From an uncultured Verrucomicrobiae bacterium (GTDB lineage Bacteria; Verrucomicrobiota; Verrucomicrobiia; Chthoniobacterales; Chthoniobacteraceae): DNA of 64,000 bases. The stretch covers positions 224,001 to 288,000 of the forward strand of contig CAVYKI010000003.1 of the NCBI GenBank assembly GCA_963769025.1, read 5' to 3'. Below the pieces are notes generated by a model. It saw only the letters and a program-made list of their open reading frames with translations. It did no database searches and was not told where the DNA came from. The translations under genes and the position numbers were made by a program. Shown piece after piece: positions 54,774 through 56,421 of the stretch (positions are counted from its first letter, which is position 1; every line of letters starts with the position of its first letter).

Positions 54774-54963
54774 CAAGGCAGCGGGTCGGTTTGCACCACC
54801 AAGGCGCCAAGGTCGGGAGGTGGGAAATCGACATCGCAACGTGTCCCCGAGAGACGAAGGAAATTTGCCGGTGGTGGAGCGAGCGCAGCGAGTGAGAACC
54901 ACCGGATCCCGTCCAACAAAACGATGCATCCCGGCAGCAACTGTGAGGTTGAGCAAGGATTTT

Positions 54964-55941
54964 TTAGGGGGAGGAAGTGGATGGTTGTGGGGGAACATTG
55001 GCCAGGGTTGCTGCGGGGGCGAAGTTTGAGTTGTGGAGCGCGGTGTTCAGCGCGCAGAGGAGCTTTCGGGCGGTGGCGATGAGCGCGCATTTGAAGGCTT
55101 TGCCGCGGGCGCGCAGCCGCTCGTAGAAGGGGCGCAGGATGGGATTGTAGCGGATGGCGTTGAAGGCGGCCATGTAGAGGGCGCTGCGCACGTTGGCCCG
55201 GCCGCCGGCGATGCGCCGCACGCCGCGGCGCGGCCCGCTGTCATCGTTCAGGGGTGCCAGGCCGACGAGCGCGGCGATGGCTTTGCCGCTGACCCGGCCC
55301 AGCTCCGGGAGATGACCCACGAGCATCGTCGCGGTGGTCGCGCCGACGCCCTGGAAGCTCTGCAAACGCTCCGCGCGGGCGCGCAGCTCGGCATGAGCAG
55401 CGATCAACCTGGCCAGACGGGCCTCGACCGCCGCGACTTGTTTTTGCACCCGCGCGATCGAAGCGAGCAGATGCGCCGCCAAGGCTTTGGGCAGGCCGGG
55501 CACCTGCCGGCACTTTTCGGCGCGCAGGAAGTCCAGCAGTTGTTCGCGGCGGGTGACCCACGCGGCCAGTTCGGCCTGCTGGGCCGAGGGCGGCGCAGTG
55601 GGTTCCGGGCGCACCGCGGCGCCAAAGGCCGCGAGCACCTGCGCATCGATCCGATCGGTCTTGGCCAGGCGCCCCGTGGCTTTGGCGAAGTCGCGGACTT
55701 GGCGCGGATTGACGACGCTGTGGACGACGCCCGCCGCCCGCAGCACCGCGACGACCGGCCGCTCCCAGCCGCCGGTCGCTTCGAGGATGACATGCGCACG
55801 CGCGTTCAAGGCCGCGAGCCGTTTGAGCAACTCCGCGCATCCGCTTGGATCATGCGCGAGCCGCAAAGGCCGACCGCCCAGATGGAGGTCAAGGAAGGAT
55901 TTGGAAACGTCGAGGCCGACGTGGACGATTATTTCAGACAT
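54964..55941 (-). CDS. IS110 family DEDD recombinase/transposase
   Basis: [23 protein letters not shown]...DSG (catalytic Ser), [19 protein letters not shown]. Confidence 0.96.
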
Positions 55942-55944
55942 GAT

Positions 55945-56120
55945 ATATGGCAAGGACTCAGCCTTGTGGATACGAGCTCGAGGCTCAGGCAACTGTTCGA
56001 GTTTGGATGCCCAAGGTGGCCGCGGGGACCGTGCTGCCGGACGGACTCAAAAGGTCCAAGGGACTTGCGCGATCTCACCACGGCCTGCTCCGCGGCGGTG
56101 GCCGCCGCCGCGGAGCCCTG
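55945..56120 (-). ncRNA. Predicted IS110 bridge RNA
   Basis: 5' 12-bp hairpin (56087-56116), then target loop with CAAGTCCCT and CCGGCAG, then donor loop with ACAGTTGC and ACAAG; these match the element's flanks and ends. Boundaries approximate. Confidence 0.8.
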
Positions 56121-56421
56121 GGTTTTGCTAACCGTGCAAGCAACTCACTAAAGCCGCCGCGCAATCAACGAATTCCGTCATACAAGGGACGGGGGAATTC
56201 CGGACGCGAGGCAGTTCCCCTCGCCCCATCCGGGGCGGATGACGTGTGTTGCATGGATCCGGTGGTGTTCGCTTCGCTCGACCACCGGCTAATTTCCGCG
56301 ACGCCTCCGGCGTCAGAAGGTGCATGACACGGTCTAGGCGGAAGGTGTTCCACGGGCGCGTGGAACGCATCGGAGGCGCATTTTTCAGGAAATGCGCAAA
56401 GTGTTGAAAACTCGGGGCTTT

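Follow-up and report, generated by a model that had tools for sequence, protein, structure and literature searches.

The IS110-family insertion sequence (IS) IS621 of Escherichia coli works with a bridge RNA, and thousands of bridge-RNA orthologues have already been predicted (Durrant et al. 2024, PMC11208160). In the portion of that paper available to us, the right target guide ranges from 4 to 7 nucleotides (nt) across orthologues. The roles of the catalytic residues of IS621 used below are those given in the available part of PMC11208158. A 2026 preprint (10.64898/2026.03.19.712850) proposes, in its accessible text, that target structure is read besides sequence. Bridge recombinases are under development as programmable tools for DNA insertion, excision, and inversion. 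In elements of the related IS1111 group, a seekRNA is encoded downstream of the gene. Here we describe an IS110-group element in a 64,000-nt stretch of DNA from an uncultured Verrucomicrobiae bacterium (assembly GCA_963769025.1, contig CAVYKI010000003.1, positions 224,001 to 288,000), hereafter called the window. Sequence comparisons indicate that positions 54938 to 56184 (minus strand) are very probably an intact IS110-group insertion sequence, the left end of which encodes a canonical two-loop bridge RNA. The element is a new example of an already described RNA-guided recombination system, and its mechanism is not new.

An IS110-group element with exact ends and an intact recombinase

A search of the genome's own 13-contig assembly identified an uninterrupted paralogue of the repeat that flanks the element (G000:C9:147169-147405; referred to as the C9 empty site). 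The left flank of the element aligned with this site up to ...GTCCCT (121/134 identical; 90%) and the right flank from CTGCCGG... (98/105 identical; 93%). The two alignments overlapped by CT alone; the empty site has a single copy of this CT, and the element is flanked by one on each side. Because the overlap is exactly CT, both ends are fixed to the base independently of the guides. On the minus strand, the left junction (56185/56184) reads ...CCCGTCC-CT followed by TGTATGACG... (in a longer reading, the element starts with TGTATGACGG), and the right junction (54938/54937) reads ...CACAGTTG followed by CT-GCCGGGATGC. The ends themselves (TGTATGAC... and ...CACAGTTG) have no terminal inverted repeats. 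A preliminary description of the window had given the span as 54936 to 56186, which corresponds to the element plus both CT cores and, judged by the C9 empty site, is correct to the base.

Relatives were drawn from 80 related loci found in a protein-based scan of genome contigs. The nearest were L011 (a Spartobacteria assembly; 85% identity) and L012 to L016 (60 to 66% identity; labelled Verrucomicrobiota, Spartobacteria, or Chthoniobacter), and comparisons of seven sequences below comprise the window element and these six. The element and its main parts are as follows.

54938..56184, minus strand: IS110-family insertion sequence, 1,247 bp without the cores; left end TGTATGAC, right end CACAGTTG
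56185..56186, minus strand: left CT core dinucleotide (target side), located by the overlap of the flank alignments; CT precedes TGTATG in 7/7 sequences
54936..54937, minus strand: right CT core dinucleotide; CT follows AC[A/C]GTTG in 7/7 sequences
55942..56184, minus strand: left noncoding end, 243 nt, with the -10-like TATGAC (56177-56182), a leader of ~60 nt, and the bridge RNA
54964..55941, minus strand: recombinase gene, 325 amino acids (aa), intact, with catalytic residues D11, E54, D96, D99, and S235-G236
54938..54963, minus strand: right noncoding end, 26 nt, with the -35-like TTGCTC at 54951-54956; terminates in the left donor sequence ACAGTTG

This combination of a long left end (243 nt) and a short right end (26 nt) is the layout of the IS110 group. 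The relatives keep a CCTTGC motif of the right end at an unchanged distance from the terminus.

The recombinase contains the Pfam domains PF01548 (2.1e-20) and PF02371 (4.2e-18), both above the curated cutoffs, and passes the NCBIfam model NF033542, "IS110 family RNA-guided transposase" (195.8 bits; cutoff, 140). Its best match among solved structures was the ISCro4 transposase (PDB 9t56; E value, 1.7e-29; residues 5 to 296), and the IS621 transposase (PDB 8wt6) was matched with an E value of 1.7e-28 over residues 5 to 295. D11, E54, D96, D99, and S235-G236 align with the IS621 columns D11, E60, D102, D105, and S241-G242. The reading frame, which the preliminary description had called intact, is indeed fully open and keeps the DEDD and Ser-Gly catalytic columns of IS621. 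An alternative TTG start at 55992 (a 342-aa open reading frame) was rejected; it overlaps the donor loop, and the relatives align from the ATG at 55941.

Guides read against the element's own junctions

Four guides and two handshake guides were assigned in the left end.

56059..56067, minus strand: left target guide CAAGTCCCT, 7/9 against its own left flank plus core
56034..56040, minus strand: right target guide CCGGCAG, 7/7 against CTGCCGG, with a GU linker before the guide
56032..56033, minus strand: handshake guide of the target loop, CA, the complement of donor positions 7 and 6 (T-G of ACAGTTG)
55989..55996, minus strand: left donor guide ACAGTTGC, equal to the right end plus the core C
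55963..55971, minus strand: right donor guide AU-CC-ACAAG, able to form discontiguous pairs with CTTGTAT of the left end, with a GU linker before the guide
55961..55962, minus strand: donor-loop handshake guide GC, first nucleotide complementary to target position 7

When the minus strand was read directly, all four guide strings were found where the preliminary description had located them. The pairings it had claimed were also recovered: CCGGCAG is the exact complement of CTGCCGG (7/7), the left target guide agrees with the left flank plus core at 7/9 positions, and the left donor guide equals the right end of the element plus C (8/8; for ACAGTTGC(C) against ACAGTTGC(T), i.e., counting the core T, 8/9). 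As had been stated, the order and spacing of the guides follow the IS621 bridge RNA (5' stem-loop, target loop, donor loop); the GU linkers also agree with it. The right donor guide required an amendment. Its ACAAG part does complement CTTGT (5/5), but the real guide is longer and has the discontiguous IS621 pattern AU-CC-ACAAG, with nine RNA nucleotides opposite the seven donor bases CTTGTAT.

Chance expectations were estimated from 200,000 first-order Markov random left ends. The right-target 7-mer was present in a fraction of 0.05 of these, the left-donor 8-mer in 0.004, and the right-donor 5-mer in 0.14, and all four guide matches were obtained jointly in 2 of the 200,000. The joint four-guide pattern is beyond chance.

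Covariation of guides with flanks and ends

Comparison with the six relatives supports the view that the guides change together with their own flanks and ends. Position 3 of the left donor guide, which is either A or C, equals the corresponding base of its own right end in 7/7 elements, and the guide as a whole matches at 8/9 positions in all seven. For the right target guide, matches to the element's own right flank numbered 7, 7, 6, 6, 6, and 6 of 7 in the six elements with a flank; the match was complete (7/7) in the window and L011 and 6/7 in L012, L013, L015, and L016, and L014, whose contig ends at the core, was left out of this comparison. The left target guide matched its own flank at 7, 6, 7, 5, 7, and 7 of 9 positions and at 7/7 in L016, for which only 7 bases of the left flank were compared. 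Outside the core, guides agreed with their cognate flanks at 59/77 positions (77%) versus 222/462 (48%) for noncognate combinations. The first nucleotide of the target-loop handshake can pair in 7/7 elements, where it is invariant, and both nucleotides can pair in 3/7. That of the donor-loop handshake can also pair in 7/7, an A facing T in L014 and a G facing C in the remaining six elements.

Structure of the bridge RNA

The left ends of L011 to L016 start with CT followed by TGTATG and can be aligned with that of the window. The structured part comprises the following features.

55942..56126, minus strand: bridge RNA gene, bounds predicted from the covariance model; cmsearch score, 189.5 bits
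56088..56115, minus strand: 5' stem-loop with an 11-bp stem, CTCCGCGGCGG/CCGCCGCGGAG (helix 2; compensatory change in 12/12 pairs)
56018..56085, minus strand: target-binding loop module (helices 3 to 6; 91 to 98% of cells paired)
55957..56001, minus strand: donor-binding loop module (helices 7 and 8; 99% and 96% of cells paired)
56117..56121, minus strand: 5' strand CCAGG of a closing helix, pairing with CTTGG at 56011-56015 and bracketing the 5' stem-loop together with the target loop

None of 200 shuffled sequences folded as well as the left end (z = -3.4). RNAalifold, applied to the seven sequences, returned the 5' stem-loop of 11 bp, a target-loop stem in two tiers carrying a top hairpin, and a hairpin in the donor loop, with compensatory changes in 18/47 pairs. 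This consensus leaves the guides unpaired except for the last three nucleotides of the left donor guide, which pair with the start of the right donor guide; the 3-pair helix so formed between the donor guides was excluded from the covariance model. The target-loop module consists of an outer stem (56078-56085/56018-56025), an inner stem (56070-56074/56027-56031), and a top hairpin (56043-56057). The donor-loop module has a basal CUC/GAG stem (55999-56001/55957-55959) and a top hairpin, GAGC-CUCGA-GCUC (55974-55986). The basal stem is partly resolved, with three modelled pairs and additional pairs inferred by eye.

The covariance model, built from the seven-sequence alignment, matched the recombinase strand in 66/80 related loci, nearly all directly upstream of the gene, and gave no match in the other 14; L011 to L016 scored 172 to 201 bits. 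In the resulting alignment, 93.4% of cells were paired, compared with 63.9% after shuffling and 35 to 48% with the partner slid, and 38/43 model pairs showed compensatory change; the observed values were reached by 0/500 shuffles, with the proviso that the alignment was fitted to the model, which favours structure, and includes four short antisense rows at the palindromic 5' hairpin. The closing helix covaries among 61 distinct relatives (84.1% of cells paired versus 46.5% shuffled, reached by 0/500 shuffles, again in a model-fitted alignment). Folding and covariance-model alignment of the noncoding end, which the preliminary description had suggested as a check, support the structure. Identity to L011 is 92.5% for the bridge part and 84.4% for the gene.

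For the leader, i.e., the first ~62 nt of the left end, RNAalifold gave no consensus pairs, and single-sequence hairpins had z scores from -2.6 to +0.5; no second 5' hairpin is claimed there. An Rfam scan of positions 54400 to 56700 with E values up to 10 returned no relevant match and no bridge-RNA family, and we regard its matches to mir-598, PyrR210, and sR10, all far under the gathering scores, as due to chance.

A second natural site in a soil metagenome

Four metagenome runs were compared with the window (DNA contigs only). A soil-metagenome contig of 1,612 nt, X1, spans positions 54929 to 56188 at ~97% identity, with 41 differences and one inserted base. Its left flank diverges from that of the window beyond CCCT and its right flank beyond CTGCCGGGA, so this copy occupies a different insertion site. 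The left flank plus core of that site, CAAGACCCT, agrees with the left target guide of the window at 8/9 positions, including positions 2 and 3, which are mismatched at the window site, and its right side agrees with the right target guide at 7/7. Provided that the X1 guides are unchanged, the X1 site would fit the window guides at 13/14 positions. Forty of these differences map to the gene, at position 55935 or lower, and ~10 would be expected in the left end at the rate of the gene. The left end of X1 (243 nt) carries at most one substitution, a figure derived from the 40/41 count and not from a full reading. A contig of another run, X2, joins 54909 to 56256, but this joint is not a precise excision; it lies within the inverted arms of the host repeat, and the contig was set aside.

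Target sites and the host repeat

The element is inserted in an imperfect palindrome of ~235 bp, the arms of which were delimited by alignment with the C9 copy and with copies from the same genus.

56187..56318, minus strand: left arm of the palindromic host repeat
54833..54935, minus strand: right arm of the palindromic host repeat

The repeat is present at four loci in the genome, of which one is occupied (that of the window), one is intact, and two are partial; the loci outside the window are G000:C9:147161-147410, C12:223037-223233, and C1:4542-4678. It is composed of several GC-rich hairpins, including one with the arms AAATTAGCCGGTGGT...ACCACCGGATC and the terminator-like GCGCCCC-TGCC-GGGGCGC followed by a T-run. 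Of the 18 same-genus genomes searched, most contain many copies of its arms. When seven repeat copies from seven same-genus genomes were aligned, the insertion point fell within the hairpin GCGCCCC-TGCC-GGGGCGC that precedes the T-run, and CCCTGCCGG was found in 4/7 copies. The repeat looks like a repetitive extragenic palindromic (REP) or miniature inverted-repeat transposable element (MITE)-like sequence that serves as a natural landing pad of the IS, and the hairpin at the insertion point, with its T-run, looks like a terminator.

Hairpins also mark the sites of the relatives. The reconstructed sites of L012, L013, L015, and L016 form perfect hairpins of 7, 5, 5, and 4 bp, respectively, with CT at the 5' stem/loop boundary, and the C9 empty site forms a 7-bp hairpin with CT at the same place. 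The sites of the window and L011 are, by eye, imperfect palindromes. Insertion in this clade naturally targets the loops of GC-rich hairpins; in this genome, the hairpin is terminator-like and lies in a genus-wide repeat. We tentatively raise the idea, which we consider doubtful, that the verrucomicrobial clade may read target shape as well as sequence, using a guide set longer than that of IS621 (9 + 7 nt, or 14 bp, the core being shared). Should the hairpin and the extra helix prove important, the bridge RNA here would represent a structural variant, possibly with higher intrinsic specificity.

The genome contains 6 one-mismatch copies of the predicted 14-nt target, CAAGTCCCTGCCGG, and 95 when up to two mismatches are allowed; the 11-mer GTCCCTGCCGG is present in nine exact copies. 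Included among the two-mismatch matches is G000:C9:552671-552835, where four tandem copies, 42 bp apart, of an identical string of ~38 nt contain CAAGTCCGTGCCGC. A synteny search for an orthologous empty site was uninformative, the two flanking genes lying on different contigs in G012 and G014.

A single Verrucomicrobiae assembly carries eleven loci (L048 and L051 to L060) with a 46 to 47% identical IS110 and near-identical bridge-RNA matches of 64.8 to 65.7 bits, a multicopy family suitable for working out target rules; L056 has a second bridge-RNA match ~1.4 kb downstream of the first. Next to the element in the window, a 151-aa open reading frame (57207-57662, minus strand) starts with MNTELEELYQQVILDHSKRPRNYG and has a GDNPSCGD motif; it resembles a SufU/IscU-type iron-sulfur scaffold.

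Putative promoter and proposed mechanism

When the two ends are joined, TTGCTC (54951-54956) stands 17 nt from TATGAC (56177-56182). The placement of these -35- and -10-like hexamers is the same in the window, L011, L012, and L013 and similar in L014 and L015; in L016, the best-scoring pair is located elsewhere. When the integrated element was scanned for promoters and terminators, one terminator-like site was returned, on the plus strand; it corresponds to the palindromic 5' stem-loop in reverse and was discarded.

By analogy with IS621, the element would excise as a circle, joining ...ACAGTTG-CT-TGTATG... (donor string, ACAGTTGCTTGTAT). [quoted passage not shown] The donor loop is expected to pair with the circle junction, ACAGTTGC with the bottom strand and AU..ACAAG with the top strand. 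The target loop would likewise pair with the genomic site, CAAGTCCCT followed directly by GCCGG, with CAAGTCCCT binding the bottom strand and CCGGCAG the top strand. A recombinase tetramer would then swap strands at the common CT. We infer from the same analogy that the junction serves as a promoter, that the RNA is transcribed, and that the element may be active at present.

Alternative explanations

Several observations speak against an active element guided in this way. Against the occupied site CCCGTCCCT, the left target guide CAAGTCCCT reaches only 7/9, with mismatches at positions 2 and 3. A 9-mer within two mismatches of the left target was present in a fraction of 0.45 of the random left ends, so this match alone is uninformative and is not beyond chance by itself. 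In the relatives, the left-target matches are likewise imperfect, down to 5/9 in L013. The right donor guide is complementary to the left end in 7/7 elements, but neither side varies, and it contributes no covariation support. As the target is palindromic, the left and right target guides are base-paired to one another in the minimum-energy fold of the single sequence. The junction promoter candidate is weak (7/12 against the sigma-70 consensus, with TATGAC lacking the final T), the scan of the integrated element found no promoter-like sites, and none of the 19 sequencing runs that contain the stretch is listed as RNA. The element is single copy in the 13-contig assembly, and the predicted 14-nt target has no exact copy in that genome. 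To these points are added the model-fitted alignment behind the pair counts and the indirect count for the X1 left end.

Some of these observations would be explained if the element were a bridge-RNA IS by descent that is now stranded, with its RNA and enzyme intact but effectively inactive in this host. The single copy, the lack of an exact target in the genome, and the 7/12 junction promoter fit such a history, as does the near absence of the element interior from the 18 same-genus genomes, in which there were only two weak matches, both in one genome (67 to 82% identity over 65 and 210 nt). We nevertheless consider stranding unlikely. The gene is fully open and has all catalytic columns, and the left end is more conserved than the gene in the comparisons with both X1 and L011. 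The X1 copy is ~97% identical and lies at another site; therefore, the lineage moved recently. Natural IS110 targets mostly carry 0 to 2 mismatches according to the available part of PMC11208160, and the genome offers the six one-mismatch sites and the nine exact copies of GTCCCTGCCGG described above.

It is very improbable that the structured left end is a mere 5' untranslated leader that controls recombinase expression, with incidental matches to the junctions. The region does lie directly upstream of the start codon, the left-target match taken alone is not significant, and the ISPpu9 small RNAs were once thought to be expression regulators (PMC11208160, in the part available). However, an incidental origin of the matches is at odds with their joint frequency among random left ends (2/200,000), with guide columns that vary with flanks and ends in the relatives, with a second site (X1) that fits the guides, and with an architecture that, as far as the published excerpts describe it, parallels IS621 even in its linkers.

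An IS1111-group element guided by a downstream seekRNA, although it would have the same Pfam domains, can be dismissed with hardly any reservation, as the 26-nt right end leaves no room for a downstream RNA and the structured RNA lies upstream of the gene, both in the window and in almost all of the 66/80 matching loci.

Comparison with known systems

The reading that we prefer, an intact IS110-group element with a two-loop bridge RNA, is closest to IS621 of E. coli (PMC11208160, PMC11208158, and PDB 8wt6), which is compared here as described in the available portions of those sources. The two elements share the domain pair, the DEDD and Ser-Gly columns, and the CT core. Both have a long left end and a short right end and an RNA in which a 5' stem-loop is followed by a target loop and then by a donor loop. 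The left target guide is 9 nt; the left donor guide is 8 nt and has the core C as its last base. The right donor guide shows the discontiguous pattern (2 + 2 skipped + 5), and the handshake guides have two nucleotides. GU precedes both right guides, as do G72-U73 and G155-U156 in IS621 (PMC11208158). The -35 (here a -35-like hexamer) lies in the right end and the -10 (here -10-like) in the left end, and insertion is into palindromic repeats.

The preliminary description had announced a distinct target/donor pair. This is true of the target, which differs, but the donor, ACAGTTG-CT-TGTAT, is identical to that of IS621 at 12/14 positions (the IS621 string being taken from the accessible text of PMC13396178). 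The donor ends and the donor loop of E. coli IS621 and of this element are almost the same, despite proteins that are only distantly related (E value, 1.7e-28). The host is apparently verrucomicrobial, the nearest copies being in Spartobacteria and Verrucomicrobiota assemblies. The right target guide has 7 nt here and 4 nt in IS621 in the published excerpts. The element further differs from IS621 in its short donor-loop hairpin (13 nt), in the leader of ~60 nt before the 5' stem-loop, which is without supported structure, in its target sequence, and in the covarying closing helix around the 5' stem-loop and target loop, of which we found no mention in the portions of the IS621 literature that were available.

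The comparison with ISCro4 (PDB 9t56) covers the protein; it is the best solved-structure match, and the relationship is distant. ISPpu10 and ISPpu9 of Pseudomonas putida are IS110 elements located in REP sequences and likewise insert into repeated palindromic intergenic sequences. L011 to L016 have 60 to 85% protein identity, the TGTATG left start, the AC[A/C]GTTG right end, and the same RNA; they differ in having their own target guides and insertion sites.

Candidate programmable recombinase, the label given in the preliminary description, is a fair one on the sequence evidence, and it is nothing special because thousands of bridge-RNA orthologues have been predicted (PMC11208160). Knowledge of the mechanism is unchanged, and the NCBI family model already calls such proteins "RNA-guided transposase." What the element adds to the known systems is a verrucomicrobial example, distant and GC-rich, in which the right target guide has the full 7 nt. 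Natural orthologues for which the ends, the guides, and two natural sites are defined are useful starting material for bridge-recombinase tools.

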